From a virus (taxonomy: Duplodnaviria > Heunggongvirae > Uroviricota > Caudoviricetes): DNA of 20,390 nt. The DNA is taken from the IMG/VR virus record IMGVR_UViG_2579778982_000025, positions 1 to 20,390 of that record. One strand, 5' to 3'. A model generated the notes under the pieces. That model was not told the origin of the DNA. It did not search any database and saw only the letters and a list, made by a program, of their open reading frames with translations. Of this stretch, positions 1 through 14,099 are shown piece after piece; positions within the stretch are counted from its first letter, which is position 1; every line of letters starts with the position of its first letter. The position numbers and the translations under genes are program-made.

Positions 1-456
1 AGACTCAGCAAAATTGCTGATAACACAGGTAAGCTGGTTGATGAGACGAAAAAACGCATTGGCCCCGGTGATATTGTCTTTAAGAACCTGCCCCGCGCAC
101 TTGCTGTTCGTGGAGAGTGGCAGGAGCGGAAGATTGCGCAGGTCAGTAAGCCTGCCCCCGCAATTACTATCACACCCGTGGTTCCGGCTCCGCTGCCTCC
201 GGCGCTGGTCCCTGTTGTTGCGGCCAGCTCCCGCCCGGTGGCGGAGGCTATACGATCGTCAGTGGCATCAGTTCCTGCAAATTCCCGTAACCGGGAGCCT
301 GTTGCCTCCGGATTTGGCGGTGAAATTCATGTTCATCTGCATAACGTTGTTACACAGAATCCCCGCGAACTGGCGAAACTGGTCGGTGAAATGGTCAGGG
401 CAGAAATGGAACGGCGCGCCCGTGCCGGACGTGGCAGTTTTTACGATAAAGATTGA
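1..456 (+). CDS. phage tail protein, C-terminal part (probable tail tape measure protein; 5' end lies outside the window)
   Basis: Frame 1 is open from position 1 to TGA at 454-456; the ORF track lists only the Met-initiated tail 178..456. Pro/Ala-rich stretch then a charged C-terminus. Sits directly upstream of a gpU-like tail gene, as the tape measure does in P2-type tail modules. Identity is from position and composition only. Confidence 0.45.
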   Translation, partial: RLSKIADNTGKLVDETKKRIGPGDIVFKNLPRALAVRGEWQERKIAQVSKPAPAITITPVVPAPLPPALVPVVAASSRPVAEAIRSSVASVPANSRNREPVASGFGGEIHVHLHNVVTQNPRELAKLVGEMVRAEMERRARAGRGSFYDKD

Positions 457-462
457 GGAGTC

Positions 463-957
463 ATGGCCATGATGATGATCTACGGCATGTTTGTTTTTGA
501 GCTGCGCACATTGCCGCATCAGCAGTTACAGCAAAACAAAAGCTGGCGGCATGTGAAAAATGAGCGCGTAAACCGCTCAGCAAGCTGGCAGTATATCGGT
601 GCAGGTGATGATCGCATCGTGCTTTCTGGCGTGCTTTATCCTGAAATTACAGGTGGCGAAGTGTCGCTTTCGCTGCTGACCACGCAGGCATATACAGGAC
701 GCCCCTGGCCTCTGATTGATGGTGTCGGGCAGATTTACGGCATGTATGTCCTGACCGGAACGAATACGACCCGTTCCGAGTTTGATCGCTACGGTAAGGC
801 GAAAAAGATAGAATTTTCACTGACACTTGAACGCTGTGATGAGGATTTGCGGGAGCGCCTGCAATCCTCATCATTCAGCGATATGCTGTCCGGCTTCAAA
901 GATAAGGTGACATCATCTCTTAACAGCGCGGCCAGTTCAGTTAAAGGGATGTTCTGA
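463..957 (+). CDS. phage tail protein, P2 gpU-like
   Basis: 164-aa ORF, N-terminus MMMIYGMFVFELRTLPHQQLQ... resembles my recollection of the P2 gpU tail protein family. Starts 7 bp after the upstream stop. Exact start (463/469/472, consecutive ATGs) is uncertain. Confidence 0.65.
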   Translation: MAMMMIYGMFVFELRTLPHQQLQQNKSWRHVKNERVNRSASWQYIGAGDDRIVLSGVLYPEITGGEVSLSLLTTQAYTGRPWPLIDGVGQIYGMYVLTGTNTTRSEFDRYGKAKKIEFSLTLERCDEDLRERLQSSSFSDMLSGFKDKVTSSLNSAASSVKGMF

Positions 958-968
958 TTTAACACAAA

Positions 969-1005
969 AACCGCTAATGGTCAGATTAGCGGTTATTTTG
1001 TTTCC
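969..1005. terminator. bidirectional rho-independent terminator between gpU-like gene and invertase 1
   Basis: Perfect 10-bp stem aaccgctaat (969-978), loop ggtcag, attagcggtt (985-994), followed by attttgtttcc on the + strand and flanked by A/T on the other strand. Overlaps the invertase 1 stop codon. Confidence 0.6.
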
Positions 1006-1580
1006 TGACTCTTCTCAATTGTTCCGCTTGATTCTCCTGCGGGGTGGTAACGATAAATCGTCGATATACCAATGCCGTAAATTATTGCCAGTTGTTTTCT
1101 GTCGTGACCGTTTTTAATCAGCCTTGCTATTTGCTCATGCTGTTCTTTTGTCAGCTTCGGTCGACGTCCGCCTGTGCGCCCCCGTGCGCGCGCTGCCGCC
1201 AGTCCGGCCAGTGTACGTTCAACAATTAATTCACGTTCCATTTCAGCCAGGGCCCCCATCACGTGGAAGAAAAAACGCCCCATTGGAGAAGATGTATCTA
1301 TGCTGTCGGTCAGACTGCGAAAATTAATCCCTCGCTCCCGTAGTTCCCCGACGAGAGAAATCAGATGTTTCATGCTTCGCCCGAGGCGATCCAGTTTCCA
1401 GACAACCAGCGTGTCACCTTTTTGAAGGCGCTTTAAAGCGCGTTTTAATCCCGGTCGGTCTGTCTTTGTCCCGCTTAATTTATCTTCAAATATTTGTTCA
1501 CATCCTGCACAAACAAGAGCGTTTCGTTGCAGGTCTGTATTCTGGTCATTTGTTGATACCCTTACATAGCCAATCAGCAC
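993..1580 (-). CDS. serine recombinase, DNA invertase (Hin/Gin/Pin/Cin family), invertase 1
   Basis: Translation (M)LIGYVRVSTNDQNTDLQRNAL...VVWKLDRLGRS...GRFFFHVMGALAEMERELIVERT...GGRRPKL...STIYRYHPAG has the catalytic-Ser N-terminus and C-terminal HTH of Hin-family invertases. Preferred start is GTG at 1578-1580, preceded by GGGAG 7 nt upstream. The ORF track's 1598 start is a TTG with no RBS. The 5' end faces the left crossover site. Confidence 0.85.
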   Translation of the reverse strand: MLIGYVRVSTNDQNTDLQRNALVCAGCEQIFEDKLSGTKTDRPGLKRALKRLQKGDTLVVWKLDRLGRSMKHLISLVGELRERGINFRSLTDSIDTSSPMGRFFFHVMGALAEMERELIVERTLAGLAAARARGRTGGRRPKLTKEQHEQIARLIKNGHDRKQLAIIYGIGISTIYRYHPAGESSGTIEKSQETK

Positions 1581-1634
1581 ACTGAATCTCCCGTCCAAAA
1601 GCGCAAATCATGCCATGCAGGCCAGAAACGGCCA

Positions 1635-1660
1635 TTATCTAAAACCTCGGTTTACAGGAA
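1635..1660. repeat. left inversion crossover site (gix/hix-like, 12-bp half-sites around a TC core)
   Basis: ttatctaaaacc-tc-ggtttacaggaa. Its inverted partner at 4685-4710 (reverse complement ttctcaaaaacc-tc-ggtttgcaggaa) differs at 3 positions and has the same core dinucleotide. Matches the known architecture of Gin/Hin recombination sites. Confidence 0.8.
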
Positions 1661-2605
1661 ACGGTAAATCAGGCTTCTGGCGCATTACAGAAAAAACAGA
1701 ACGGCGCAGATATTCCAGGAAAAGATACCTTCACCAAAAATATTGGTGCCTGCCGCGCATATAGCGCATGGCTGAATATTGGTGGCAATAGTCAGACCTG
1801 GACAACCGCACAATTCATTTCGTGGCTGGAGAGTCAGGGGGCATTTAACCATCCTTACTGGATGTGCAAAGGCTCATGGGCTTATGCAAACAATAAGGTC
1901 ATTACAGATACAGGTTGTGGAAATATTTGTCTTGCAGGTGCTGTGGTGGAAGTTATTGGCACTCGCGGCGCAATGACCATACGCGTTACTACGCCGAGTA
2001 CATCCAGCGGTGGCGGAATTACTAACGCTCAATTCACCTATATTAATCATGGTGATGCTTATGCTCCTGGCTGGCGACGAGACTACAACACGAAAAACCA
2101 GCAGCCTGCATTTGCTTTAGGGCAAACAGGAAGCAGGGTTGCAAATGATAAAGCTGTTGGCTGGAACTGGAATAGCGGCGTTTATGATGCAGATATCAGT
2201 GGCGCATCGACATTAATCCTCCACTTTAATATGAATGCGGGGAGTTGCCCTGCTGTACAGTTCCGCGTGAATTATAAAAACGGCGGTATTTTTTATCGTT
2301 CAGCGCGTGATGGTTATGGATTTGAGGCTGACTGGTCAGAGTTTTACACCACGACCCGCAAACCCTCTGCGGGAGATGTTGGTGCATACACGCAGGCAGA
2401 ATGTAACTCAAGGTTTATTACAGGTATTCGCCTTGGCGGTCTGTCATCTGTTCAGACATGGAATGGTCCCGGCTGGTCTGACAGGTCAGGTTATGTCGTT
2501 ACGGGTTCAGTTAACGGAAACCGTGATGAATTAATTGATACAACTCAGGCAAGGCCAATTCAGTATTGCATTAATGGGACGTGGTATAACGCGGGGAGTA
2601 TTTAA
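1643..2605 (+). CDS. tail fibre protein, variable C-terminal module (no constant N-terminal region or start codon in this orientation)
   Basis: Frame is open from just after TAA (1640-1642) to TAA at 2603-2605 and begins inside the crossover site with codons NLGLQETVN. First ATG is only at 1862. C-terminus ...IQYCINGTWYNAGSI is typical of Mu S / P1 S / e14 Stf-type fibre tips. Followed by a Tfa gene 2 bp downstream. Confidence 0.7.
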   Translation, partial: NLGLQETVNQASGALQKKQNGADIPGKDTFTKNIGACRAYSAWLNIGGNSQTWTTAQFISWLESQGAFNHPYWMCKGSWAYANNKVITDTGCGNICLAGAVVEVIGTRGAMTIRVTTPSTSSGGGITNAQFTYINHGDAYAPGWRRDYNTKNQQPAFALGQTGSRVANDKAVGWNWNSGVYDADISGASTLILHFNMNAGSCPAVQFRVNYKNGGIFYRSARDGYGFEADWSEFYTTTRKPSAGDVGAYTQAECNSRFITGIRLGGLSSVQTWNGPGWSDRSGYVVTGSVNGNRDELIDTTQARPIQYCINGTWYNAGSI

Positions 2606-2607
2606 CG

Positions 2608-3141
2608 ATGATGCACTTAAAAAACATTACTGCTGGCAACCCTAAAACAAAAGAGCAATACCAGCTAACGAAACAATTTAACATCAAATGGCTTTATTCA
2701 GAGGATGGAAAAAACTGGTATGAGGAACAAAAGAATTTCCAGCCAGACACTTTGAAAATGGTCTATGACCATAACGGCGTTATTATTTGTATTGAAAAGG
2801 ATGTTTCAGCAATTAATCCGGAAGGCGCAAGCGTCGTTGAATTACCTGATATTACAGCAAATCGCCGGGCTGATATTTCGGGTAAATGGATGTTCAAAGA
2901 TGGCGTAGTGATAAAGCGAACTTATACCGAGGAGGAACAGAGGCAGCAGGCAGAGAATGAAAAGCAAAGCCTGTTGCAACTTGTCAGGGATAAAACCCAG
3001 CTATGGGACTCACAGCTACGGCTGGGTATCATTTCCGACGAGAATAAACAAAAATTAACCGAGTGGATGCTCTATGCGCAGAAGGTCGAATCCACAGACA
3101 CCTCCAGCCTGCCTGTAACGTTTCCAGAACAACCAGAATGA
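2608..3141 (+). CDS. tfa: tail fibre assembly protein (Tfa / Mu U-like chaperone)
   Basis: 177 aa, [40 protein letters not shown]...[22 protein letters not shown]; conserved Tfa-like N-terminal region. Immediately downstream of the fibre module. Confidence 0.8.
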   Translation: MMHLKNITAGNPKTKEQYQLTKQFNIKWLYSEDGKNWYEEQKNFQPDTLKMVYDHNGVIICIEKDVSAINPEGASVVELPDITANRRADISGKWMFKDGVVIKRTYTEEEQRQQAENEKQSLLQLVRDKTQLWDSQLRLGIISDENKQKLTEWMLYAQKVESTDTSSLPVTFPEQPE

Positions 3142-3144
3142 AAC

Positions 3145-3172
3145 AAGGCCCGCTATCGGGCCTTAATTTTTA
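3145..3172. terminator. bidirectional terminator at the centre of the invertible segment
   Basis: aaggcccg-ctat-cgggcctt hairpin followed by aattttta, between the two convergent tfa genes. Confidence 0.6.
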
Positions 3173-3700
3173 TTCAGGCTTTTGTGGCCATTCAGGATTT
3201 GCCGTATCCACACGGCTGACCAGAACACTATAGCGTTCCCATGACTCCAGTCGTGCGCGTTCCTCATCCGTCGCCATATTCAGCCTGACAGCGCGTTCCA
3301 GTGGCTGAATAACGTTTTCTGCTTCGGAAAGTAACGCGGCCTTTTGTGATTCGGCCTGTTGTTGTTGCTCGTCTGCCGTATAAATCCGTTTAACCACAGC
3401 TCCGTCCTTAAACATCCACTTCCCTGAATCATCGGCACGACGATTGGCTGTTATATCTGGAATCTCAACGACGCTAAAGCCTTCGGGATTAAGCGTTGAG
3501 GCATCTTTGGTTATGGCAACAATAATATTATTTTCGTCGTATACAATCTTTATGGTGTCGTCCTGAAAGTTATTTACTTCTTCATACCAGTTTTTACCGT
3601 CTTCGGACCATAACCAGATAACATCAAAATTCTTTGTTAGCTGATATTGTTCTTTCGTTTTAGGATTTCCAGACTTAATATTTTTTAAATGCTGCATCAT
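3170..3700 (-). CDS. tfa: tail fibre assembly protein, alternative copy (Tfa')
   Basis: 176 aa, [41 protein letters not shown]...; paralogous to 2608..3141, with a divergent C-terminal third as expected for alternative host-range cassettes. Confidence 0.8.
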
Positions 3701-4765
3701 TTACACCTGTGCGACGTTATACCATGTGCCATTGATGTATTTTTGTATTGGCCTGAAGATGGCTTCATCATCGCCATCTACTTCACCAATGATTCTTAAT
3801 CCGGTAATTGCGTGTCCGGCTTTTTCATAACGACCACCACGCGCCATCAATTGAACAACACGTGTGCCAAGTCGGACATCTCTCACATAGCGTGAGTCAA
3901 AATTGCCATAATTGTCGGGAATAACTTGCGCACCACAAAGCCAGTTACCGTTATTATCCATGTACGCCTGACCATCGGTGCCATTGGCTGTCCTTGAGTT
4001 ATTAATCATGTAGATGCCAAATTGCTTGTTCCCCAGTCCACCTATCATGAACTTTCGGTCGGCGTGATTCTGGCGAAGTAACGCCTGAGCGCTATCAGTG
4101 TTAACTATATTTTTCCCAAAGATAGCGTTGTTATCGCGCATCTGAATCCACATACCATTACTGCTGTTAATAGCAAAACGGTCTGAAAGTGTCTCCCCTG
4201 AAACATTAAGACCACGCCCCATCGAAACAGCGCCAGTAGCGTTATTAATCCATAATGGCCTTAATCCGTTATAAGTCCCCATGTTGTCACCGGAGTTTGT
4301 CAACATGAAGTATGTATCTGAACCATCATTACGAATAAAGAATCCGTAATTACCATAAGCAATACGTAGGCCGTTTGCTGATTTTGATATGACTTCGCCA
4401 TTTACAATGGCATTGACAAGAACATACAAAGCATCCCATTTAAGATTCATCAGGTCTTTTGTTGTGGTACTTTGTTTGCTTCTCCATTTGAAATATTCAT
4501 TGCCGTTGTCGCCTGTCTCAAACCACATGTATGAATCAGTGTCACCATCGGCATCATTTTTAAATCCAATCTTCGCCCAGTCAGTATTTCGAATCCAAGC
4601 AAGGATTGAGTCATTTTCAAAAGTAAGCCCACCGGACAAGGTATCGCCATTCTTTTGCACGGCGTTACCAACCCTGTTTACCGTTTCCTGCAAACCGAGG
4701 TTTTTGAGAATTGCCTCTGTGTCGTCTGGACGATATTTTTTTCCGCTTTTAGCAACAATCGCGGT
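3701..4765 (-). CDS. tail fibre protein, alternative variable C-terminal module, fused to a 24-codon remnant of a constant region
   Basis: Minus-strand frame is open from the stop at 4766-4768 down to 3701. Passes through the right crossover site with the same NLGLQETVN codons as the left module. Only 24 codons (TAIVAKSGKKYRPDDTEAILKNLG) lie outside the site. C-terminus ...IQKYINGTWYNVAQV. The ORF-track start at 4693 is a TTG inside the crossover site. Confidence 0.7.
   Translation of the reverse strand, partial: TAIVAKSGKKYRPDDTEAILKNLGLQETVNRVGNAVQKNGDTLSGGLTFENDSILAWIRNTDWAKIGFKNDADGDTDSYMWFETGDNGNEYFKWRSKQSTTTKDLMNLKWDALYVLVNAIVNGEVISKSANGLRIAYGNYGFFIRNDGSDTYFMLTNSGDNMGTYNGLRPLWINNATGAVSMGRGLNVSGETLSDRFAINSSNGMWIQMRDNNAIFGKNIVNTDSAQALLRQNHADRKFMIGGLGNKQFGIYMINNSRTANGTDGQAYMDNNGNWLCGAQVIPDNYGNFDSRYVRDVRLGTRVVQLMARGGRYEKAGHAITGLRIIGEVDGDDEAIFRPIQKYINGTWYNVAQV
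4685..4710. repeat. right inversion crossover site (inverted partner of 1635-1660)
   Basis: Plus strand ttcctgcaaaccgaggtttttgagaa; reverse complement aligns to the left site with 3 mismatches. Confidence 0.8.
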
Positions 4766-4774
4766 TTAGAAAGT

Positions 4775-5329
4775 ATGCAATATGGTTATGCGAGGGTGTC
4801 AACTTTTGACCAGAATTTGGAATTACAACTGGAGGCGCTCAGGAGTTCAGGATGTGACCGGATTTTTGAAGATAAAATATCCGGTGCTAAATCAAAACGA
4901 CCAGGACTTGATAAGCTACTGAAGGTGTTACGTCCGGGCGATACGGTTATTGTCTGGAAGCTGGACCGAATGGGGCGTTCTCTGATTCATCTTGTTGATT
5001 TACTTAACCATTTTTTATCAAACAACATTGAGTTTATTTCGATTACGGAAGGGATAAAAATTAGCACTTCAATTGGCCGCTTTGCCTACACGATGCTGAG
5101 TGCAGTCGCAGAGATGGAGCGGGAAAATATGATTGAAAGAACGCGTGCAGGATTGGCGGTGGCAAGGGCTAACGGCAGGATAGGAGGACGCCGCTCAAAG
5201 CTGGCACCAGAGCAATGGGAACAGATCGGAAGGCTTATTGCGAATGGTGTTTCACGTAAGCGGATAGCGATTATCTTCGATGTTACCTTATCCACGCTTT
5301 ACCGCAGGTTTCCGGCTGGGAATCATTGA
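4775..5329 (+). CDS. serine recombinase (invertase/resolvase family), invertase 2
   Basis: MQYGYARVSTFDQNLELQLEAL...VIVWKLDRMGRS...AVAEMERENMIERT...GGRRSKL...STLYRRFPAG, 184 aa. ATG at 4775; the ORF-track 4655 start is an unsupported N-terminal extension. Candidate promoter TTGCCT (4711-4716) - N17 - TATTTT abuts the right crossover site. Clearly divergent in sequence from invertase 1. Confidence 0.8.
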   Translation: MQYGYARVSTFDQNLELQLEALRSSGCDRIFEDKISGAKSKRPGLDKLLKVLRPGDTVIVWKLDRMGRSLIHLVDLLNHFLSNNIEFISITEGIKISTSIGRFAYTMLSAVAEMERENMIERTRAGLAVARANGRIGGRRSKLAPEQWEQIGRLIANGVSRKRIAIIFDVTLSTLYRRFPAGNH

Positions 5330-5460
5330 CTGGAGTTAGGCCAGTAGTATGATGCTCGCAAAACGAGATCCAATTTAGATCCTTTTACTGGTGGATTATC
5401 GTTCGATCAGTGAGAGACTTCGTGCATGACCGAAAGTGTTGTGGTAGAGTTCTCTTAAAA

Positions 5461-5473
5461 CCACGTAACGTGG
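5461..5473. promoter_or_regulatory. operator-like palindrome CCACG-TAA-CGTGG upstream of the repA control region
   Basis: Perfect 5-3-5 inverted repeat with the same CCAC(A/G)-N3-(C/T)GTGG architecture as the sites clustered in the cI/cro intergenic region; next to a TATGAT -10-like hexamer at 5475-5480. Confidence 0.4.
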
Positions 5474-5511
5474 TTATGATTGTGGGTGTCTGGTTGGAAA
5501 CTGACCAGATA

Positions 5512-5630
5512 TGGAAACAAAAAGCCCGCAGATAAATCTGCGGGCTTCTTGCGACATCCACGGAAAACCAACAACAACAATCCATGGGCGCCTCGACAAC
5601 TCCCATTATACGTTGGTTTTCCGTGGACGC
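5512..5630 (-). ncRNA. candidate CopA-like antisense RNA of the repA leader (IncFII-type copy-number control)
   Basis: Two hairpins in the repA leader. A long stem-loop has a 15-bp stem ccacggaaaaccaac (5558-5572) / gttggttttccgtgg (5612-5626) and a ~39-nt loop. On the minus strand it is followed by aagcccgcaga-ttta-tctgcgggctt (5522-5547) and then a T-run (complement of 5509-5520), a rho-independent terminator oriented for minus-strand transcription. The RNA ends are not mapped. Confidence 0.45.
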
Positions 5631-5642
5631 AAGAGCGAACAT

Positions 5643-6491
5643 ATGGATAGACCAATGCCGTCTCTACGTTCCGCTTACGTTTGTAATTTGTCGCCGGAGT
5701 TCCAGCCTCCAAAGCACCATACGCACAAGCTGCCGCTGGTGTTATCTGATGCTTTACAGCGCATTAATGGGCGTGATCTTACGTGTGAGGTTGCGTTCTA
5801 CGTTAATCAACCGTCAGAGCGGAAGCGCCGGATAAACGAGCATCGTCGTCGGGCGATTAATGCTGTGATCGCTGCGATTTTGCACCATGTAAACATCATT
5901 TCTAAGCGGGTTCTGGCTAGTGCTGAGGCGTTGGCTGATTTTTGCGGCCTGTCTACCGTATCCGAAGCTGGGAACAAGTCTATAACGCGCTGTACAAGGG
6001 CGTTGTCGCAACTGAAAGCGTTAGGGTTTATTGATTATGAACGTCGCTGGGATCGGGTGAATAAACAGTATTGGCCAGCGAAAATAGAGATTCGTGATCA
6101 ACTGCTGGAAACCGTTGGTATTACTGAACAAGCATGGAGACGTGCGGTTAGCCAGAAACTTAATTACTTCAATGCGAAGAATAGCGAACGGCTTAAAAAA
6201 GCGATAACGGAGGCTGATTATAAGCGTATTGTTATTCAGGAGCAGATGGAGAATGTATGGCGTCAGAGGAAGACGGCCAGAGAGATAAAGGCAAAACAGA
6301 AAGCAGCGGAGAGAGCTGCGCGTCTTGTTCGGGAAAAGGGAGAGGCCGAACTTCGTCATCAAATCACTAGAGAGGTTAGCCAGGAATTTGCTGATGGCAT
6401 GTATCCTGGAGCTGACCTTGCATATTTACGATCCCTCGTTGAGCAGCGTTATAACAGGTTAAGAAAGACCTGGAAATCACTCCAACATTAA
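5643..6491 (+). CDS. repA: plasmid replication initiator RepA (IncFII RepA1-like)
   Basis: ...GNKSITRCTRALSQLKALGFIDYERRWD... resembles the R100/R1 RepA1 motif (..KLSITRATRALTFLSELGLITYQ..), with an Arg/Lys-rich C-terminal half. Preceded by antisense-RNA-like hairpins and followed by a DnaA box plus AT-rich region. Start at ATG 5643 (MDRPMPSLRS...) is preferred because the ORF-track start at 5511 lies inside the antisense terminator hairpin. An IncFII-type leader peptide may exist in another frame ending at 5648-5650, but I cannot place its start. Confidence 0.75.
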   Translation: MDRPMPSLRSAYVCNLSPEFQPPKHHTHKLPLVLSDALQRINGRDLTCEVAFYVNQPSERKRRINEHRRRAINAVIAAILHHVNIISKRVLASAEALADFCGLSTVSEAGNKSITRCTRALSQLKALGFIDYERRWDRVNKQYWPAKIEIRDQLLETVGITEQAWRRAVSQKLNYFNAKNSERLKKAITEADYKRIVIQEQMENVWRQRKTAREIKAKQKAAERAARLVREKGEAELRHQITREVSQEFADGMYPGADLAYLRSLVEQRYNRLRKTWKSLQH

Positions 6492-6599
6492 CCCACCTTA
6501 ATGATGAATCCGGTTTTACCGGAGGATTATCTACGTCGCAATAAAATATCTGTTCAAAAAACAAGCTAAATTAATTTTCTCTAAACCTGAACACAGCAA

Positions 6600-6740
6600 A
6601 AATATCGCCTTCACAGGCATCGGCTAATAAAGTTATCCACAGTTTTGATATGTATATGCAAATGGTTTTTTATAATAGATGCACTAAACAAATAAATGCA
6701 AAATCACTTTCTTTTATTAAGACTTTCTTTATTTAACTTA
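6600..6740. other. putative replication origin (DnaA box plus AT-rich unwinding region)
   Basis: Perfect DnaA box TTATCCACA at 6633-6641, ~140 bp downstream of repA, followed by ~100 bp of very AT-rich sequence (6642-6740). Matches the repA-then-oriR layout of IncFII replicons. Confidence 0.5.
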
Positions 6741-7134
6741 CGCAGGCTTTGCCTGTGAATATGTTCGCCCTTGCAGCGAGCTAAAGCTCGCGCCGGTTCG
6801 AGTCGCTACGCTCAAATATACCTCCTCCGGCACTTGCCGGAGGCATGGAGCAGCCTGATCATCCTTTTCGAAACGGCGCGTTTCGAACTATACAAAATCA
6901 ATTTATATAAGGCCGAAATGAGGCCTACGGCCGGGCTTTGCAGGAGGAAGGAGCGAGCCTTATCGATAAACGTCGATAAATACGCACACAGTAGCCATCA
7001 GAACGCGATAAAACGTAAGAAACATCATTTCCTATTAGACATAGAAAACTTGTCTTATACGCAATGTAGTAAATTTCTATTGCCACATAGGAAAAGATTT
7101 CCTACCATCGTAGATATAATAAATGGAGATGGTT

Positions 7135-7422
7135 ATGGATAAAGATACTGTTTTAAAAATGTTGAATCCGGCTTGTTTAAAAAAAGCGGATGAATGGGAA
7201 TCTCCTACATGTGGAGAAGTTCGGGCAGTCATTGGCCTGACCGGAATGAGCGGCTCGCAGTTGGCCAAAAAACTAGGCTTAAAAGATAGTCGCAATGTTC
7301 GCAACTGGCAGATGTTAAAGGAGTCCACATCCAGATCCAGCATTCCGTATGCAGCCTGGGCGCTGCTGTGTTACTTCGCTGGGTTAGGGTTAATCTTCAT
7401 TGATAACAAAACAGATGTTTGA
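7135..7422 (+). CDS. hypothetical protein with putative HTH motif and hydrophobic C-terminus
   Basis: ATG 7135 preceded by GGAG (7125-7128). 95 aa, MDKDTVLKMLNPACLKKADEWESPTCGEVRAVIGLTGMSGSQLAKKLGL... ending in IPYAAWALLCYFAGLGLIFI. No family recognised. Confidence 0.5.
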   Translation: MDKDTVLKMLNPACLKKADEWESPTCGEVRAVIGLTGMSGSQLAKKLGLKDSRNVRNWQMLKESTSRSSIPYAAWALLCYFAGLGLIFIDNKTDV

Positions 7423-7445
7423 AACATGCAAATATGAGGTTTGTT

Positions 7446-7709
7446 ATGGAACTTGTACGCAAAACACGCAAAGAGTTCTTGGACCTGTATCGCATGGGAG
7501 CTTTCACTTGTGTTGTGGCTACCCAGGACGAAGTGACAAAAAGCTGGCGGCTTTTTGCTCTCAATAAAAAAGGGATTGCCGTTTTCATTGAAAAAGCCCG
7601 TGGTGGTATCCGCGAATGGGCGGGATTGAATTATGTGGCTGATTTTTGCGCAGCTATGGGGATTCGTCGCTGGGAAGTCCATATGCCAGGAGTAAAGTCA
7701 CAAAAATAG
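7446..7709 (+). CDS. hypothetical protein
   Basis: ATG 7446 preceded by GAGG with 6-nt spacing, 24 bp after the upstream gene, so likely one operon. 87 aa, MELVRKTRKEFLDLYRMGAFTCVVATQDEVTKSWRLFALNKKG.... ORF-track start 7419 is probably too long. Confidence 0.45.
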   Translation: MELVRKTRKEFLDLYRMGAFTCVVATQDEVTKSWRLFALNKKGIAVFIEKARGGIREWAGLNYVADFCAAMGIRRWEVHMPGVKSQK

Positions 7710-7891
7710 GGCTTTCGCGTCGAAAATGAGGCGAAACTGAAAACGAGATTTCATTAACAAATAAGCAACATAAAAAACGGTGGAAAACGCCCAGGAAAAC
7801 ATGATCTTTTGAGCGGATTTTTTAGATCCGACAATGAACGGTGATCCGGTGGTGCCGATAACGTCCATTATGTTAAATAGCCCCGTTTTTC

Positions 7892-7945
7892 TTGAAATTA
7901 TAACCTACGGGTTATATAGTTAGTGATATAAACTACAGGTTATAG
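7892..7945 (+). promoter_or_regulatory. sigma70-type promoter with two operator palindromes for the toxin-antitoxin operon
   Basis: TTGAAA (7892-7897) - 17 bp - TATAGT (7915-7920). Inverted repeats tataacc-tacg-ggttata (about 7899-7916) and atataaactacaggttatag (7926-7945) overlap the -10 and start region. RBS AGGA at 7944-7947. Confidence 0.55.
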
Positions 7946-7953
7946 GATTGAGC

Positions 7954-8301
7954 ATGTGGACGGTACTTTTTAGCCAGCGATTTGACGACTGGCTAAATGA
8001 GCAAGAAGACGCTCTTCAGGAAAAGGTTTTGGCTGATTTGAAAAAGCTACAGGTTTACGGACCTGAGTTACCCAGGCCATATGCCGATACCGTAAAAGGT
8101 TCTCGGTACAAAAATATGAAAGAGCTTCGCGTTCAGTTTTCTGGCCGTCCGATAAGAGCCTTTTATGCGTTCGATCCGATTCGCCGGGCCATCGTTCTTT
8201 GTGCAGGAGACAAAAGTAACGATAAACGGTTTTATGAAAAACTGGTGCGTATAGCTGAGGATGAGTTTGCAGCACATCTGAACACACTGGAGAGCAAGTA
8301 A
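7954..8301 (+). CDS. higB: type II toxin, RelE/ParE superfamily (HigB-like, phage Gp49-type addiction-module killer)
   Basis: MWTVLFSQRFDDWLNEQEDALQEKVLADLKKLQVYGPELPRPYADTVKGSRYKNMKELRVQFSGRPIRAFYAFDPIRRAIVLCAGDKSNDKRFYEKL.... Toxin-first order. Stop TAA overlaps the ATG of the downstream HTH gene by 1 nt. The ORF-track start 7948 is a TTG; ATG 7954 has the RBS. Confidence 0.7.
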   Translation: MWTVLFSQRFDDWLNEQEDALQEKVLADLKKLQVYGPELPRPYADTVKGSRYKNMKELRVQFSGRPIRAFYAFDPIRRAIVLCAGDKSNDKRFYEKLVRIAEDEFAAHLNTLESK

Positions 8302-8600
8302 TGAGAACATTAGATGAGGTGATTGCCAGCCGTTCACCTGAAAGCCAGGCGCGAATTAAAGAAATGGCAGATGAGATGATTCTTGAGGTCGGCTTGCAGA
8401 TGATGCGTGAAGAACTCCAGTTATCACAAAAACAGGTTGCTGAGGCGATGGGTATAAGCCAGCCAGCAGTAACAAAGCTGGAGCAGCGCGGAAATGATTT
8501 AAAGCTGGCGACGTTAAAACGTTACGTTGAAGCTATGGGAGGCAAATTAAGCCTGGATGTTGAGCTTCCCACAGGAAAGCGAGTAGCGTTCCATGTCTAA
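8301..8600 (+). CDS. higA: type II antitoxin, XRE-family HTH (HigA-like)
   Basis: 99 aa with central HTH (LSQKQVAEAMGISQPAVTKLEQ). Translationally coupled to the upstream toxin gene. Confidence 0.7.
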   Translation: MRTLDEVIASRSPESQARIKEMADEMILEVGLQMMREELQLSQKQVAEAMGISQPAVTKLEQRGNDLKLATLKRYVEAMGGKLSLDVELPTGKRVAFHV

Positions 8601-8612
8601 CATAATGTAAGT

Positions 8613-8640
8613 GTAAGGCCCCATTGGGGCCTTACTTATT
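8613..8640. terminator. bidirectional terminator
   Basis: gtaaggcccc-attg-gggccttac hairpin followed by ttatttactt, between convergent genes. Confidence 0.6.
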
Positions 8641-8924
8641 TACTTACCATTTTTGCGGTTTTTTTCGGACTTCATAAGCTGGCTAACGCGCCCTGGTGTG
8701 ATATTTAACATGCGGCTTACTTCAGCTTGTGATCCTACTTCCTCTACTAGCGATGCAACATAGCGAGATTTTCCTGAGGAGGTTAATCCATTATATGTTG
8801 CTCGTGCGACTTTTCCCTGAGCTTCTCTCATATCAACTAATGCCTGAGCAACTTGCTCAAAACCTTTAATTGTTACTTCTGTTAATGCTCGAATAGCATC
8901 AATTTCAGATTTTGGTTTAGCCAT
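8640..8924 (-). CDS. putative DNA-binding regulator (C-terminal HTH)
   Basis: MAKPKSEIDAIRALTEVTIKGFEQ...VGSQAEVSRMLNITPGRVSQLMK. ATG at 8924 with GAGG 6 nt upstream. ORF-track start 8936 is a TTG. Confidence 0.5.
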   Translation of the reverse strand: MAKPKSEIDAIRALTEVTIKGFEQVAQALVDMREAQGKVARATYNGLTSSGKSRYVASLVEEVGSQAEVSRMLNITPGRVSQLMKSEKNRKNGK

Positions 8925-8972
8925 TTGGTACCTCAAATTGTTTAAAATGTGTTAATTACAAAATTCAGCCGA

Positions 8973-8997
8973 TACCATGTTCAATGGTATACCATTG
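8973..8997. promoter_or_regulatory. palindromic operator candidate (CAATGGTATACCATTG)
   Basis: Perfect 16-bp palindrome at 8982-8997, overlapping a second inverted repeat TACCAT-N5-ATGGTA (8973-8989), in the divergent intergenic region between 8640..8924 and 9192..9572. Confidence 0.4.
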
Positions 8998-9085
8998 CTG
9001 AAATGTCTTTTTCAAGACCTTGCCAATAAGCTAAACAAAAATGTTTAATCATTCGCCTAAAAAAACACCAGTCACTATTATTTAT

Positions 9086-9186
9086 ATAATTATATATTTA
9101 TATAAAAAGTGCTTTACAGGTGGGAAAAAATTTCCTAAGGTTATACCCGAAACCGAGCGATACCCGCCCTGGTTAAACCGGAGATA
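9086..9186 (+). promoter_or_regulatory. repeated promoter / 5'UTR cassette, copy 1
   Basis: Near-identical to 19153..19252. Contains TTTACA - 17 bp - TAAGGT (TATGGT in copy 2) promoter-like hexamers, a ~55-nt leader and a GGAG RBS, preceded by AT-rich palindromes. Confidence 0.5.
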
Positions 9187-9191
9187 ACCCG

Positions 9192-9572
9192 ATGAGCATG
9201 ATTAAAATCCGCAAAAACGCTTTCCTTAAAATTCAAACTATCCTGGCTGGTTCTGTTGGCGTGATTTGCCGTTCTTCTTCAAGCCGCATCGATGACGGCT
9301 ACGATGATGAGTACCGTGTGTCCTCGTGCGATGAGGCTTTAACCTGGCTGAAGGAGAATCAGGAACGTGCCCAGGTATATCTGGAAACAGAGAACGGCAA
9401 TCAGATGCTGCGTATTAGCGGTCGTTATGGATTTGAAACTACATTCATGGCCTATTTTAATCAGGCTTACTTTGACAAGGAGTTGGCCTGGTACACTGAT
9501 CGCATGAGCAAAAGCGAGCCAGCCCCGATTACACCGCCGAACAATAAACCATTTTTATTCCTCGTTAAGTAA
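9192..9572 (+). CDS. hypothetical protein
   Basis: 126-aa ORF driven by the repeated promoter cassette. Acidic, no recognisable motif. Confidence 0.5.
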   Translation: MSMIKIRKNAFLKIQTILAGSVGVICRSSSSRIDDGYDDEYRVSSCDEALTWLKENQERAQVYLETENGNQMLRISGRYGFETTFMAYFNQAYFDKELAWYTDRMSKSEPAPITPPNNKPFLFLVK

Positions 9573-9580
9573 ACACAATA

Positions 9581-9607
9581 CGCAAAGTGTCATTTTGACA
9601 CTTTGCG
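9581..9607. promoter_or_regulatory. 27-bp perfect palindrome (hairpin or operator)
   Basis: cgcaaagtgtca-ttt-tgacactttgcg, 9 nt after the 9192..9572 stop and 29 nt before the XRE-family gene. No U-tract follows, so it is an operator or RNA stability element rather than a classic terminator. Confidence 0.4.
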
Positions 9608-9635
9608 AGTGTTAATATTGTGCGAGGAGGATGCT

Positions 9636-9908
9636 ATGACGGGTTATGAATTGAAATTATGGCGTCGTGGGATGAACTGGACGCAGGAGCGAGCCGCCGA
9701 AGAATTTGGGATATCGTTGGCTACATATAAGCGATATGAGAAGGGGGAGCCGCCGAGGGTCATTGAGATGGCCATTCGCGTTCTGTCGTTTGACGATATG
9801 GTGAAGGATCTTTCACACCTTGATAAAGACGCGATTCTGTTAAGGCTGCAAACCCTTGTATGGGAAAAGGTTAAAGTGTCGTCAGAATTGGAACAAGGGA
9901 TCAAATGA
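9636..9908 (+). CDS. XRE-family HTH transcriptional regulator
   Basis: MTGYELKLWRRGMNWTQERAAEEFGISLATYKRYEKGE.... RBS GAGGAGG (9624-9630). The ORF-track start 9603 is upstream of the RBS. Confidence 0.7.
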   Translation: MTGYELKLWRRGMNWTQERAAEEFGISLATYKRYEKGEPPRVIEMAIRVLSFDDMVKDLSHLDKDAILLRLQTLVWEKVKVSSELEQGIK

Positions 9909-9957
9909 TCCTTTACGGATCGTTTTATGGTGGTGTAATGTAAGCGCCAGAAAGACA

Positions 9958-9985
9958 AAAACCGCCTTGCCGGGCGGTTTTCAGT
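9958..9985 (+). terminator. rho-independent terminator
   Basis: aaaaccgcc-ttgccg-ggcggtttt hairpin, then tcag. Confidence 0.5.
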
Positions 9986-10543
9986 CTGAAATTTAAATCT
10001 TGCTTGGTAGGCTGGATTTAAAAAGACACCTCTTGATTGGGGCGGCTTTCTTGCGTCTAAAGATAATCAAATCTTTTTGCGCCTGCAACCCCTTTTTTAC
10101 TGGTGCCTGTTTCAGACTCACGCTCGCGTCGTTGTCTTTGCCACTTCGTTGGGTTCGGTGTTTTTGGGCGGAGTGGCGCGCGGGTATGCGTACAAGGGGA
10201 AAGTGTGCTGACGCAAGCCAGGAACAGCGATCTAAACTAAGTCGAGTCTGAGAAAGGCAGGAGTGCGACAACTCGCCTGTGCTCTATGAGCAGAAGAAGG
10301 TATATCAGACGACCAATGGCATGATTGTGGGCCACAGGGCGCACACGGCGGCGAAGCATTGGAAACGATGTGGAGCTATCTGGTGGCATGAGTTCCGGTA
10401 CTCGATCTCGAGCTTTTTTTGATGCTTTTGAGAAGGGGCCGGAACTCCGGTAAAGGGCACCCTGTATGGGGGGAGGGGGGGTTGTGTCTAAAGGAAGATC
10501 CAATACGATATTGCTTTACCCTTATATCTAAAAGGAGATTTCT

Positions 10544-11179
10544 ATGGGGATGCTGGTGGCGTTTATTATTAGCCTGATTTTGTGTTTCTTCGTAGTTCGT
10601 GGTGCATATCGGAAACAATGTGGCCCATCTTCTGGTAGTAAGTTCAAAGCTGTTTTAGTGAGTGGGTTTCTTGGGATTGCTACTTTTGTTGTTGTTAATA
10701 CTCTTGCTGCTGTGGCCTTGATTCCAGAAGACTCCGGCACTACGGCTACTACCGGAGCTGCTTTCGATGGCGTGACCGTAGATAAGTTTAAGCAGCTATA
10801 TAATGATGACCTTGAAGGTATCGCTACATCAGGAAAATCCACCTCCACTATAAGAATTAAGTCAGTTAAACAAGGTAACAACACCGTTGAATTTGCCATC
10901 AATTCATCTGTTAACGGTCGAGCTAGAGTTGATAAGGATGGGAAGATTTCAGAGTTATTATGGCGAGTATCTAAGCCTAGCTCTGATTCCTTGCTTTCTA
11001 TGGCCGTAGCTGTTGAAGTCTTGGATGCATCAAGTGATAGAGACACAGTGATCGCGCAGTTAGAGCAGATTGTTAAATCTGATACGCAGAAAGCTGAGTT
11101 TAAGACTAAGAGAGGCGAGTATTACGTTTCTCGTGACAAATCAGGGCACGTGTCGCTACTGATTACACCGAAATATTAA
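10544..11179 (+). CDS. membrane protein with two predicted N-terminal transmembrane helices, function unknown
   Basis: Strong RBS AAGGAG 7 nt upstream. Hydrophobic segments MLVAFIISLILCFFVV and VLVSGFLGIATFVVVNTLAAVALI, then a Ser/Thr-rich soluble domain. Confidence 0.65.
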   Translation: MGMLVAFIISLILCFFVVRGAYRKQCGPSSGSKFKAVLVSGFLGIATFVVVNTLAAVALIPEDSGTTATTGAAFDGVTVDKFKQLYNDDLEGIATSGKSTSTIRIKSVKQGNNTVEFAINSSVNGRARVDKDGKISELLWRVSKPSSDSLLSMAVAVEVLDASSDRDTVIAQLEQIVKSDTQKAEFKTKRGEYYVSRDKSGHVSLLITPKY

Positions 11180-11188
11180 GAATTGAAG

Positions 11189-11216
11189 AAGCGCCCAAAT
11201 CGGGCGCTTTGTTTTA
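11189..11216. terminator. bidirectional terminator
   Basis: aagcgccc-aaatc-gggcgctt followed by tgtttt, between convergent genes. Confidence 0.6.
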
Positions 11217-12356
11217 TGGTTTTGCACCTGCGGCCAGTTTATCCGCCGATATCTTTATCAGTTCCTGTAGTGTCCTGGCTGGTAGGTTTGCATCCAGTAC
11301 GCTGAGTATGCTGCTGTGATCTGCCTGGTCGACTACTTTGCCTGTCGGTGGTAGTAGCTTGAGCTGAGGATTCAGGTTTTCGTCAAAGCTGATCAGTGCT
11401 CTGGCGTTTCTGAGCAGATCAAGAAGTAAGGCTGATATCACATTTTCCTGAGTCATTGCTGGCAGATTTAGCGCCGCTTTGGTTTTCCCTGTTGCCTTGT
11501 CAAACTCCTTGATTAGTTCCTTCCTGTAGTTCGGTTCCGTTAATAGCCGATTATGCTCTGTTGCCGCGCGGATAATCGTTTTTTCCTGGTACAGTCGTTT
11601 AGCCAGATCACGCTCGTACTGTGTTTTTAACACGCTGCTGATAGCGTTAAAGGCTTCAATGTAGGCCAGCTTGATATCTTTCACGCTTGGACCGTCGATG
11701 CTCTCCATGAGTAAGGTAAATCCGTCTTTTGTCATGCGATAGATTGTTATTTCGCGGTCGCTTCCTTCCAGCGGTCGTTGCTCTTTAAAGAAGTGACGCG
11801 CCGCAGCCGTGCGAGGAATGCGTAGCGCATCGATGGCCATAACGATGGAATTGTTTGTGGTGCTGAATGCCTGGGCAACATCGGCTGAGGTTGTGAGTGG
11901 CTCGTTGTTGCACACTTTAATGTAAAACATCGGTTTGGCGTTGAGCGTATCGACAACCTCACGAGCATTGTTTGGCGAGACGGTAACGGTCGCGGCCGTT
12001 TGCGCGTTCTGGTTGAAGTAGCAGTCTTCCAGCCGTTCGAACACATCCCACGCTTGGTTAGTTTCAAGCATTTTGGCGTGACGTGCAGCCCCGCGTTCGG
12101 TCCAGAGGATTAGTTTTCTAACGTTATTCGCGATGGTTTGAAAATCTCTTAAAGAGATTTTCAAACTTTGGAGATCTGTACCTTTTACAACTATGAAATG
12201 TTTTCCTTCTGTAAACCGGGACTTATTACGGTGGTGATTTCTGTGAAGACATTCGACGCTACAGCCATATAGTTTGGCAAGCAGCTCCGTGGTGATAACG
12301 GGGATCTGGTTATGCAGGATAGGCTGTAGGGTGTTAACGGTCGGAAGCGTTTTCAT
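11214..12356 (-). CDS. phage antirepressor-like protein (ORF6N/Rha-type N-terminal DNA-binding domains, long C-terminal region)
   Basis: 380 aa. N-terminal ...ITTELLAKLYGCSVECLHRNHHRNKSRFTEGKHFIVVKG... resembles ORF6N-type antirepressor domains; a second similar segment ...TTSADVAQAFSTTNNSIVMAIDAL follows. Family assignment is from memory of motifs only. Confidence 0.55.
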   Translation of the reverse strand: MKTLPTVNTLQPILHNQIPVITTELLAKLYGCSVECLHRNHHRNKSRFTEGKHFIVVKGTDLQSLKISLRDFQTIANNVRKLILWTERGAARHAKMLETNQAWDVFERLEDCYFNQNAQTAATVTVSPNNAREVVDTLNAKPMFYIKVCNNEPLTTSADVAQAFSTTNNSIVMAIDALRIPRTAAARHFFKEQRPLEGSDREITIYRMTKDGFTLLMESIDGPSVKDIKLAYIEAFNAISSVLKTQYERDLAKRLYQEKTIIRAATEHNRLLTEPNYRKELIKEFDKATGKTKAALNLPAMTQENVISALLLDLLRNARALISFDENLNPQLKLLPPTGKVVDQADHSSILSVLDANLPARTLQELIKISADKLAAGAKP

Positions 12357-12640
12357 TTTGCACCTCCCATAACTACTTTGGTTACGAGGGAGATTTTTGC
12401 GTCAGAAACAGCGTTATCGTTGCTGGCGATGCGCATAGCTTCGCGCTCGATGATTTCAGCCAGGCGGAATTTATCGGCGTATGAGGCTTTCTTGAGAAGG
12501 ATCTTTACGAGGTTGACGTAATAGTCATGGGGTAAGTTTGTCATGATGATAGTTCCAGTTTTGATATTGGAATAATCACCACCGCTGACGCCAATCAGTG
12601 AGGTGGTGAGACGTACAGGGTTGGCGTAACCGGTCATCAT
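12353..12640 (-). CDS. hypothetical protein
   Basis: Stop overlaps the start of the antirepressor-like gene in an ATGA arrangement, suggesting translational coupling. Start ambiguous between 12640 and an internal ATG (MTNLPHD...). Confidence 0.4.
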   Translation of the reverse strand: MMTGYANPVRLTTSLIGVSGGDYSNIKTGTIIMTNLPHDYYVNLVKILLKKASYADKFRLAEIIEREAMRIASNDNAVSDAKISLVTKVVMGGAK

Positions 12641-12844
12641 GATACCCGGCGAGCCTTACGGCTCCCCCGCACGCCCCACCATAATTCGGGTGTAGCTGTG
12701 CTTTACGCATAAAAAAACCGCTAACGCGGTATGCGCCATGATGATTATCGGGACGCCAATCCCGACCGTAGATTTTGCTACGGCTCGGAAAGTGTCCACC
12801 AATGGCGCATTTATGTCAATACAGCGGGATTTTAACAGACTAAA

Positions 12845-12857
12845 CCACATAGTGTGG
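12845..12857. promoter_or_regulatory. operator-like palindrome CCACA-TAG-TGTGG
   Basis: Same motif class as the cI/cro operators; in the divergent intergenic region 12641-12994. Confidence 0.4.
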
Positions 12858-12883
12858 GTTTGAATGCGGGGCTTTTAATTTTC

Positions 12884-13534: not shown

Positions 13535-13553
13535 TGAGTGAAGAAACAAAAAA

Positions 13554-14094: not shown

Positions 14095-14099
14095 CGATT

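Follow-up and report, generated by a model that had tools for sequence, protein, structure and literature searches.

The stretch from the right crossover site to the start codon of the second invertase gene (4694–4777) is an ordinary component of a well-understood type of inversion switch. It holds the native spacer of a phage-plasmid of about 48 kb, and its connection to a P2-like prophage probably arose as a Velvet chimera through the homologous invertible segments of the two elements. The window (the whole stretch of DNA analysed, 20,390 bp) is the single contig JICA01000105.1 of enteropathogenic Escherichia coli (EPEC) S6685, for which HiSeq (Illumina) data from 300-bp inserts were assembled with Velvet. 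The contig consists of the invertase-proximal halves of two elements linked via a mosaic segment, with the anomaly proper at the left side of the window and not at 4766. Its features are:

14–456, plus strand: 3' end of a P2-type tail tape measure gene, assigned to the chromosomal P2-like prophage and not to the phage-plasmid
469–957, plus strand: P2 GpU-family tail protein of the prophage (Pfam PF06995, E 1.5e-38)
969–994: terminator-like hairpin, bidirectional, between GpU and invertase 1
993–1580, minus strand: invertase 1, a Gin/Pin-family serine invertase of the P2-like prophage (GTG start at 1580; Pfam Resolvase and HTH_7)
1635–1660: left 26-bp crossover site (TTATCTAAAACC TC GGTTTACAGGAA), outer flank of the invertase-1-proximal type
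1661–2605, plus strand: variable fibre C-terminal cassette Sv (gp37_C domain), with no constant part upstream
2608–3141, plus strand: tail fibre assembly gene, U-like (Pfam Caudo_TAP, E 5e-37)
3170–3700, minus strand: tail fibre assembly gene, U'-like (Pfam Caudo_TAP, E 2e-37)
3701–4684, minus strand: second variable fibre cassette Sv', mosaic (Gp34_trimer domain)
4080–4468: likeliest exchange tract, 389 bp, in which PEC422 (Mu-like type) and p48 of strain 1428 (phage-plasmid type) are identical
4685–4710: right 26-bp crossover site (TTCCTGCAAACC GA GGTTTTTGAGAA), outer flank of the phage-plasmid invertase-2-proximal type
4711–4774, plus strand: native spacer from the site to invertase 2, 64 bp, with the TTGCCT/TATTTT pair and the invertase 2 5' leader
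4775–5329, plus strand: invertase 2, a Gin-family serine invertase of the phage-plasmid (Pfam Resolvase and HTH_7)
5511–6491, plus strand: IncFII-type RepA replication initiator of the phage-plasmid (Pfam PF02387, E 1e-43)

The spacer in front of invertase 2

A sequence-only reading had described this stretch as a truncated fibre constant region abutting the invertase 2 promoter. Re-reading of the sequence confirmed its coordinates: the minus-strand fibre frame, which reads TAIVAKSGKKYRPDDTEAILKNLG directly behind a stop, has 24 open codons from 4765 down to 4694, the stop TAA is the complement of 4766–4768, the ATG of invertase 2 stands at 4775–4777, and TTGCCT (4711–4716) is separated by 17 nt from TATTTT (4734–4739). 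The probability of a 24-codon open stretch by chance is 0.32 with uniform codons and 0.23 with the local base composition. The promoter-like pair is located where it had been reported, but its strength is no better than chance, as it matches 8 of 12 positions (under the scan's threshold of 9 of 12) and the region holds fewer promoter-like sites than shuffled sequences do (3 versus 8.6). The match is weak, and 4711–4739 may be regarded as a putative promoter. A search for known RNAs in 900–7000 gave no Rfam match.

Comparison with related phage-plasmids revealed that the 64-nt spacer, including the TAA, is present with 0–3 differences in all 17 loci examined; its carriers include the E. coli ATCC 25922 plasmid and the Yersinia phages vB_YpM_39, vB_YpM_41, and vB_YpM_44. 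Since the spacer is conserved in the family and the constant fibre gene lies at the other end of the segment, 4711–4774 represents the native spacer between site and invertase. The open fibre frame that runs 24 codons into it is, as judged from the sequence, a coincidence and no relic of a constant region. The comparison with relatives that had been proposed as a check on the truncation thus found the stub itself conserved, and the idea of a truncated constant region has to be given up.

It also appears extremely improbable that the stub is an ancient remnant of the constant region, left by an old deletion in an ancestor of the phage-plasmid. The 24 codons are open, the IVAKS of the peptide resembles an ILAKS near the ends of real constant regions, and the peptide is kept in two phage-plasmid lineages. 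Against this, alignment of the stub DNA to genuine constant-region ends was at chance level, with 41% of shuffles scoring at least as high, and the family has its constant gene, intact, at the opposite end. In addition, tblastn of the 29-aa stub peptide against 50,697 phage records matched invertase-proximal spacers only (those of the phage-plasmid family and of SJ46) and in no case the terminus of a full-length fibre gene. Based on the shuffled alignment and the peptide search, we rejected this candidate.

In the explanation proposed here, 4694–4777 comprises the outer half of the invertase-proximal site, 64 bp of leader with the probable promoter, and the ATG with which a Gin-family invertase starts, arranged as on the invertase side of Mu-type G segments. 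Because the invertase gene is located just outside the invertible fibre segment, it would be expressed in either orientation of that segment. The constant fibre gene is missing here because the other end holds the invertase-proximal site, the invertase, and the tail genes of the prophage.

Two flanks of different origin joined by a mosaic segment

On the right, window 4670–20390 shares 97.5–99.2% identity with Yersinia phage vB_YpM_44 and is collinear with it over a backbone of spacer, invertase, repA, toxin-antitoxin, regulators, and a parA-like gene; a literature search for vB_YpM_44 found nothing. The family, a common phage-plasmid of about 48 kb, has a RepA of the IncFII type and contractile-tail genes of the P2 type. 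In all, 191 plasmid records match the window from about 4656–4692 through invertase 2 and repA. The intact layout, found in vB_YpM_44, the ATCC 25922 plasmid, pTD225C4_47, and six draft loci, runs from baseplate through constant and variable fibre, tfa, tfa', Sv', spacer, and invertase to repA, and the baseplate genes and constant fibre gene of the family, which lie left of the segment, are absent from the window. Invertase 2 matches the Gin structure 3UJ3 over residues 2–181 (E 9e-62) and shares 56% identity with invertase 1; both match PF00239 and PF02796 and are small serine recombinases, with the resolvase catalytic domain at the N terminus and an HTH at the C terminus. The exact protein of invertase 2 occurs in 2331 blocks of the collection, mainly on contigs of about 48–50 kb, and the plasmid stretch is identical over 10 kb in run ERR10854107. 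Phage-plasmid proteins were also considered as rare markers, and each is found on at least 1000 contigs.

The left side of the window, from 1 to about 2290, is chromosomal P2-like prophage sequence (tape measure, GpU, and invertase 1). Positions 1–1673 share 99.6–99.8% identity with chromosomal prophages of E. coli N63 (99.8%), TW10828, and H10407, in which the tape measure is annotated; 3–4 mismatches separate positions 1644–2289 from the prophage segments of N63 and TW10828, and the identity to TW10828 over 1–3904 is 97.5%. The left flank is matched over at least 80% of its length in 618 of 5426 closed E. coli genomes, with the gene order T, U, invertase, segment, constant fibre (minus strand), I, J, W, and V in the matching prophages. 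The GpU gene has the same surroundings in three loci (L003, L007, and L042), and the exact 195-aa protein of invertase 1 is present on more than 1000 contigs, mainly chromosomal ones. The tape measure region (14–456) is absent from the phage-plasmid relatives; window 1–1634 as a whole has no match in members of that family, the plasmid matches all beginning at 1631–1635.

Between the two flanks lies an inversion switch, with two inverted 26-bp sites that carry the conserved core and central dinucleotide and with alternative fibre cassettes and assembly genes in opposed orientation (Sv with tfa on the plus strand, Sv' with tfa' on the minus strand). Switches of this type also have a Fis-bound recombinational enhancer in cis, which is usually found within the 5' part of the invertase gene. 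A scan of the window with the 20-nt consensus found two gix-like sites only, at 1641–1660 and 4685–4704 and inverted, with 0 expected by chance, so the third site whose search had been suggested does not occur here. The two sites both belong to the invertase-proximal type, and the window contains no constant-side site; the outer flank of the left site is identical to that of the invertase-proximal site in the prophages L003 and L007. It had been correctly noted that the constant fibre gene adjoins neither crossover site. On the left, a TAA in the outer half-site shuts the fibre frame at once, and on the right the frame ends after 24 non-homologous codons; in all intact relatives, the constant 5' fibre part adjoins one of the sites.

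The segment itself is a patchwork. Segments of prophages, of Mu-like, P1-like, and lambdoid elements, and of the phage-plasmid share tracts, from hundreds of bases to more than 1 kb long, that are 99–100% identical, which shows frequent natural exchange, and the exact U' protein is present in Mu-like, D6/P1-like, lambdoid, and P2-like elements. The called 319-aa product of Sv' was found in this contig only (153 billion gene positions searched), and the 330-aa product from a TTG start, looked up as DNA and with M, is not on record. An exchange point drawn from the nearest relatives alone (TW10828 for 1–3904, p48 for 3867–5654) was superseded by a mismatch-by-mismatch comparison, which revealed that the window matches the PEC422 type left of 4080–4468 and the p48 type right of it. 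PEC422 shows 2 mismatches to the window over 3300–4468 and dense mismatches from 4469, and locus L005 shows 0 mismatches over 4319–4574 and 98.6% identity over 4080–4799. The switch to plasmid-type sequence would lie within the invertible segment or on its boundary, and our best estimate for it is 4080–4468, the parental types being represented by proxies from other strains and such segments being naturally mosaic. The junction would thus not be at 4766, where it had previously been placed.

Origin of the join

The contig sequence does join two replicons, as had been suggested, with the prophage as left flank and the plasmid as right flank. The accompanying claim that invertase 2 and the replicon replaced the constant fibre gene holds relative to the P2-like prophage of the left flank, whose constant fibre and baseplate genes are replaced, but not for a junction at the stub. 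In the contig, two unrelated elements are linked through their homologous invertible segments, and an assembly chimera is the most likely cause, as inferred from priors and the repeat geometry: Velvet may have taken a wrong path at repeats that the 300-bp library insert could not span, and the shared tract of 389 bp exceeds that insert. Searches with the whole window and with 600–5900 against 5426 closed E. coli genomes and 72,556 plasmids, and with 4400–5600 against 50,697 phages, returned no record that covers the join. The plasmid-specific part (4712–6500) was found at 83 places in the closed genomes, all of them on plasmids and 0 of 83 on chromosomes. Exact-protein look-ups of invertase 2, U, and U' for the same join gave normal contexts, one P1-like hybrid contig, and one N-gapped scaffold. 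Record OU349839.1 holds a comparable 'chromosomal' copy with a run of N at the crossover site, and a 137-kb draft contig (L013) contains an analogous join, in which the cin side of a P1-like element meets the invertase side of this phage-plasmid.

The main competing explanation is a real join, made by RecA-type homologous recombination inside the segments between the phage-plasmid and a resident P2-like prophage in S6685, which we consider unlikely although several observations fit it. Its product would be a cointegrate or integrated plasmid, with an orphan segment between two invertases and a reciprocal segment between two converging constant fibre genes. Substrate would be ample, given the tracts of 99–100% identity across element types, and the switch falls in a 389-bp identical tract, as homologous recombination predicts. 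The patchwork and the unique Sv' would also be expected from a real recent recombination, since the segments are naturally mosaic. Moreover, the finished SJ46 genome has gained the plasmid's spacer-invertase module beside a truncated cin, indicating that such exchanges do become fixed; the analogous hybrid L013 in another draft could mean that cointegrates form, and relatives of P1-like phage-plasmids are reported to occur in integrated form (PMC10879196). On the other hand, the sole support for the join is one Velvet contig from 300-bp-insert data across a multi-copy repeat, and 0 of 73 closed replicon-carrying genomes have the replicon on the chromosome or joined to this prophage. It seems slightly less likely still that the contig is correct as it stands, with the 48-kb phage-plasmid of S6685 fused to the P2-like prophage via the fibre inversion segments and carrying one orphan cassette and two invertases.

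The sequence-only reading had attributed the junction to a serine invertase, through intermolecular fusion or deletion between sites, which would place it exactly at the gix core. We regard this as very improbable. The unique flanks end at the sites, with prophage identity to about 1673 and plasmid identity from 4670, and are formally compatible with it. In addition, invertase 2 departs from Gin and Hin at helix-E regulatory positions and has Thr at the position of Gin H106/Hin H107, where substitutions yield Fis-independent, promiscuous invertases (PMC3798978). However, wild-type enzymes of the Gin/Hin type act in a Fis/enhancer invertasome that gives intramolecular inversion exclusively, fusion and deletion being restricted to hyperactive mutants (PMC3798978). 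The proxies also put the switch 220–620 bp inside the segment and not at the central dinucleotide (4697–4698), and no parental segment matching the whole of 1661–4684 was found beside either flank type, the best whole-segment matches having 96.7–97.4% identity.

The main value of the finding is a caution about short-read contigs that cross invertible fibre segments. Because these segments are up to 100% identical over hundreds of bases in P2-like, Mu-like, P1-like, and lambdoid prophages and in the phage-plasmid, short-read contigs can join unrelated elements, and such contigs can look like the products of deletion or of replicon fusion. A real join would provide a route for chromosomal integration of the phage-plasmid via the fibre segment of a resident prophage, and invertible segments would serve as portable homology for the entry of phage-plasmids into chromosomes and their exit from them. 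In the predicted reciprocal cassette, two converging constant fibre genes would then share a single set of receptor-binding tips and exchange it between them. Such a case would be of moderate interest for phage-plasmid ecology, yet it would be ordinary homologous recombination.

Comparison with known inversion switches

Among the closest known arrangements is the G segment with gin of phage Mu and of Mu-like prophages such as that of E. coli PEC422, to whose G segment the window segment is 97.4% identical over its whole length. In both, inverted 26-bp sites (core AAACC-TC/GA-GGTTT) enclose two pairs of variable fibre and assembly genes that face each other, and an invertase gene lies just outside one site and reads away from the segment, with spacers in the window of 54 nt (invertase 1) and 64 nt (invertase 2). 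In Mu, the other site adjoins the constant part of S, whereas in the window its neighbour is a second invertase gene; invertase 2 has diverged (56% identity to the Gin-like invertase 1), and the sequence of its spacer has no relation to the flank next to gin. P1, which has a C segment with cin, and D6 have the same type of switch, with fibre and assembly cassettes 92–96% identical to parts of the window segment, but cin reads towards the segment and the flank of the site differs from that in the window.

Each flank of the window has its own counterpart. The P2-like prophages (N63, TW10828, and ETEC H10407) have the tape measure, GpU, invertase 1, and the invertase-proximal site in common with the window; beyond their far site come the constant fibre gene and the baseplate genes I, J, W, and V on the minus strand, whereas invertase 2 and the replicon follow in the window. 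Salmonella phage SJ46, a P1-like phage-plasmid, carries a recognisable copy of the spacer with more differences and without the TAA, so that the frame runs on; the 29-aa stub peptide has 86% identity there, and the invertase gene beside its fibre segment is 89% identical in DNA over window 4677–5283. In this finished genome, the constant fibre gene is intact and lies on the opposite side, and a truncated remnant of cin is located past pin. The nearest counterparts of the right flank are the phage-plasmids of about 48 kb (the 48,488-bp plasmid of ATCC 25922, NZ_CP009073, and vB_YpM_39, vB_YpM_41, and vB_YpM_44), which are 97.5–99.2% identical to window 4670–20390 and have the baseplate and constant fibre genes left of the segment; in the window, this place is taken by prophage genes and a second invertase.

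Layout of the interval

The window holds two opposed fibre and assembly cassettes between a pair of crossover sites: Sv and tfa (plus strand), and tfa' and Sv' (minus strand). A scan of the whole window with a 20-nt site consensus, for which no match was expected by chance, returned just these two sites and no third gix-like site.

Features of the window (coordinates, strand, description)
Preceding invertase 1: P2 GpU gene and end of the tape measure gene
993–1580, minus: invertase 1, second invertase gene, left of the left site
1635–1660: partner crossover site, inverted relative to 4685–4710
3701–4684, minus: Sv', whose fibre frame runs on past the right site
4685–4710: Gin-type crossover site, 26 bp, TTCCTGCAAACC GA GGTTTTTGAGAA
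4694–4765, minus: stub, 24 further open codons of the Sv' frame, ...TAIVAKSGKKYRPDDTEAILKNLG
4711–4739: promoter-like TTGCCT-N17-TATTTT
Complement of 4766–4768, minus: TAA closing the stub frame upstream
4775: ATG of invertase 2 (serine invertase, 184 aa), six bases past the TAA
Right of invertase 2: IncFII-type repA
9074–9105, 14606–14637, 15314–15345, 15387–15418, 19133–19172, 20358–20389: AT-rich motif copies

The stub, TAA, ATG, and promoter-like pair all lie where the sequence-only reading had placed them, and as sequence features they are no more than chance would give. For an open stretch of 24 codons, p is 0.32 under uniform codons and 0.23 at the local base composition; the promoter-like pair agrees with the consensus at 8 of 12 positions, under the scan threshold, and the region contains fewer promoter-like sites than shuffled sequence (3 versus 8.6). 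The stub DNA aligned with the true ends of the phage-plasmid and prophage constant fibre regions at the level of shuffled sequence, 41% of shuffles equalling or exceeding its score. In a tblastn search of 50,697 phage records, the 29-aa stub peptide matched only the invertase-proximal spacers of three Yersinia phages and the P1-like phage SJ46, and in no case the terminus of a full-length fibre gene. No Rfam family matched within 900–7000.

The AT-rich motif (TTATATAA..TCTATAAA) occurs in seven copies, flanks a parA-like gene (14637–15305) on both sides, and contains the right contig end within one copy. A 102-nt direct repeat is present in two copies with 97% identity (9083–9184 and 19150–19251), and both elements may be partition or operator sites.

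Conservation of the stub and the anomalous left flank

Positions 4670–20390 share 97.5–99.2% identity with phage-plasmids of a ~48-kb family, which has among its many members Yersinia phages vB_YpM_39/41/44 and the 48,488-bp E. coli ATCC 25922 plasmid. Most of the 191 matching plasmid records run uninterrupted from ~4656–4692 across invertase 2 into repA, and the 64-nt spacer between the site and the ATG shows 0–3 differences in 17/17 related phage-plasmid loci examined, with the TAA and six-base gap included. Intact members have the order baseplate genes, constant and variable fibre, tfa, tfa' (minus), Sv' (minus), site, spacer, invertase, and repA, so the constant fibre gene of the family lies at the opposite segment end and the invertase gene just outside the near end. 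The sequence-only reading had taken the stub for a truncated constant fibre region and had named its conservation in relatives as evidence against this; the same stub is kept at all 17 loci, which refutes that reading on its own terms, and it is therefore a conserved native feature of the family.

Two plasmid contigs (L011 and L016, locus ~8920–9770) have lost the fibre segment and retain the spacer, invertase 2, and repA, with an IS26-type transposase (DDE_Tnp_IS240) directly upstream of invertase 2; one carries resistance genes, and the L016 copy is identical to the window over 4675–4777. Of the 73 closed E. coli genomes with this replicon, ~45 have a match that starts only at 5298, 5322, or further right, that is, just before the invertase 2 stop or beyond it. 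A large family branch thus lacks this invertase and probably also the invertible fibre module.

The real anomaly, judged by these comparisons, is the left flank and not the stub. Positions 1–1673 have no counterpart in the phage-plasmid family, whose plasmid matches all start at the left crossover site (1631–1635), and are 99.6–99.8% identical to a chromosomal P2-like prophage (e.g. N63, TW10828, and ETEC H10407); at least 80% of 1–1700 is matched in 618/5426 closed E. coli genomes. These prophages are arranged as sheath, tube, E, T, U (plus), invertase (minus), site, invertible segment, site, constant fibre (minus), and I, J, W, V (minus). Comparison of site flanks revealed three types, namely constant-side (...GTTATCGAATACCTCGGTTT, the same in phage-plasmid and prophage over the 45 nt compared), invertase-1-side, and invertase-2-side. 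The window has one site of each invertase-side type and none of the constant-side type, and therefore joins the invertase-proximal halves of two elements across one segment.

The segment itself is a patchwork. Positions 1644–2289 follow the N63/TW10828 prophage type (3–4 mismatches), 2752–3914 differ by one mismatch from a lambdoid-prophage segment, and 3300–4468 differ by two from the segment of the Mu-like prophage of PEC422, with sharp divergence from 4469. The phage-plasmid of strain 1428 (p48) has no mismatch over 4319–4574, and its identity across the stretch from 4080 into invertase 2 is 98.6%. Since the PEC422-type and p48-type segments are mutually identical over 4080–4468 (389 bp), this tract and the matches on either side suggest that the switch to plasmid-linked sequence most likely occurred within it, inside Sv'; these proxies are segments of other strains, and natural mosaicism precludes certainty. 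The tract is separated from the site's central dinucleotide by 220–620 bp and from the junction proposed at the stub by ~300–690 bp. The sequence-only reading was right about the absence of the constant fibre gene and about the joining of two replicons, and its junction place, stub nature, and mechanism did not hold up.

The 319-aa Sv' product occurs in this assembly only (among 153 billion gene positions), and the Sv, U, and U' products each occur in other assemblies as well. This plasmid and prophages of the P2-like, Mu-like, P1/D6-like, and lambdoid kinds carry near-identical cassettes to 1635–4711, with exact U and U' proteins, and the segment behaves as a common module that unrelated types of phage exchange freely.

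Origin of the join

By exact-protein matching, the window is the entire contig JICA01000105.1 (20,390 bp) of assembly GCA_000691105.1, from EPEC isolate S6685 (Kenya). The reads were HiSeq 2000 paired ends from 300-bp inserts, assembly was by Velvet/VelvetOptimiser, and the nine assemblies of the same publication comprise 117–283 contigs each (PMC4056304). The 389-bp exact repeat exceeds the inserts and cannot be bridged, and S6685's own segments probably hold still longer repeats. The join was found in no closed E. coli genome (5426), plasmid (72,556), or phage (50,697) record, and in the 73 closed genomes with the plasmid-specific part, all 83 copies of it are plasmid-borne and none is chromosomal. 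For these reasons an assembly chimera is the likeliest reading, held with some confidence, and the odd architecture is probably an artefact. Homologous recombination between the segments of the two elements could instead have produced a real cointegrate, which is less likely given its absence from those records; this reading draws support from the clear swapping of sequence between invertible segments in nature, from SJ46, where a fixed transfer of this very spacer-invertase module can be seen to happen, from reported integrated phage-plasmid relatives (PMC10879196), and from an analogous draft contig (L013) joining a P1-like cin side to the invertase 2 side. The least likely route is the fusion or deletion between crossover sites by an invertase that had been proposed, since the exchange point, by proxies, is away from a site core and since wild-type Hin/Gin-type invertases carry out intramolecular inversion exclusively, action between separate molecules being confined to hyperactive mutants (PMC3798978). 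One caveat is that invertase 2 (56% identical to invertase 1) has diverged from Gin and Hin at helix-E positions, to which Fis-independent mutations map, mutation of the His at Gin H106/Hin H107 giving Fis-independence (PMC3798978). Its residues ~101–117 (5075–5125) read GRFAYTMLSAVAEMERE versus GRFFFHVMGALAEMERE in Gin, Hin, and invertase 1, with Thr in place of that His, and the TxLSAVA stretch is similar to gamma-delta/Tn3 resolvase.

The L013 contig (GCA_018023475.1, ABABOT010000011.1, 137,345 bp; locus 5693–10555) is a second two-invertase hybrid, ordered P1-like lydB/darA and cin, cix-type site, fibre segment, phage-plasmid spacer, invertase 2, and repA; its size approximates one P1-like plus one 48-kb element, and it may be either a genuine cointegrate or a chimeric contig. 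Invertase 2 and repA turned up in a single chromosomal record, the 5.28-Mb OU349839.1, which has an N run exactly at the crossover site (locus ~9280–9330), and its copy is therefore a scaffolding product. Positions 9166–19179 are 100% identical to a 10,014-bp contig from an independent sequencing run (Logan ERR10854107 contig 104), and that contig is from S6685 itself or from one of its clonal relatives.

Proposed working and known inversion switches

Conservation of the 64-nt sequence and its position is established across the aligned loci. The invertase-proximal site would bind the invertase, and the adjoining 64 nt would hold its promoter and leader, so that the invertase would be made with the segment in either orientation. 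The -35-like hexamer abutting the site would leave room for autoregulation through site occupancy.

The Mu-like prophage of PEC422 and P2-like prophages share the phage-plasmid layout, with a site-to-invertase spacer of 54 nt. SJ46 has a recognisable copy of the phage-plasmid spacer-invertase module adjoining a truncated cin; at 7857–10114, the spacer and invertase (pin) are followed by a 75-aa second-invertase remnant on the opposite strand. Here a natural replacement at the invertase end of the segment has become fixed. As a component of an inversion switch of a known kind, the interval 4694–4777 is ordinary and had been sequenced before.
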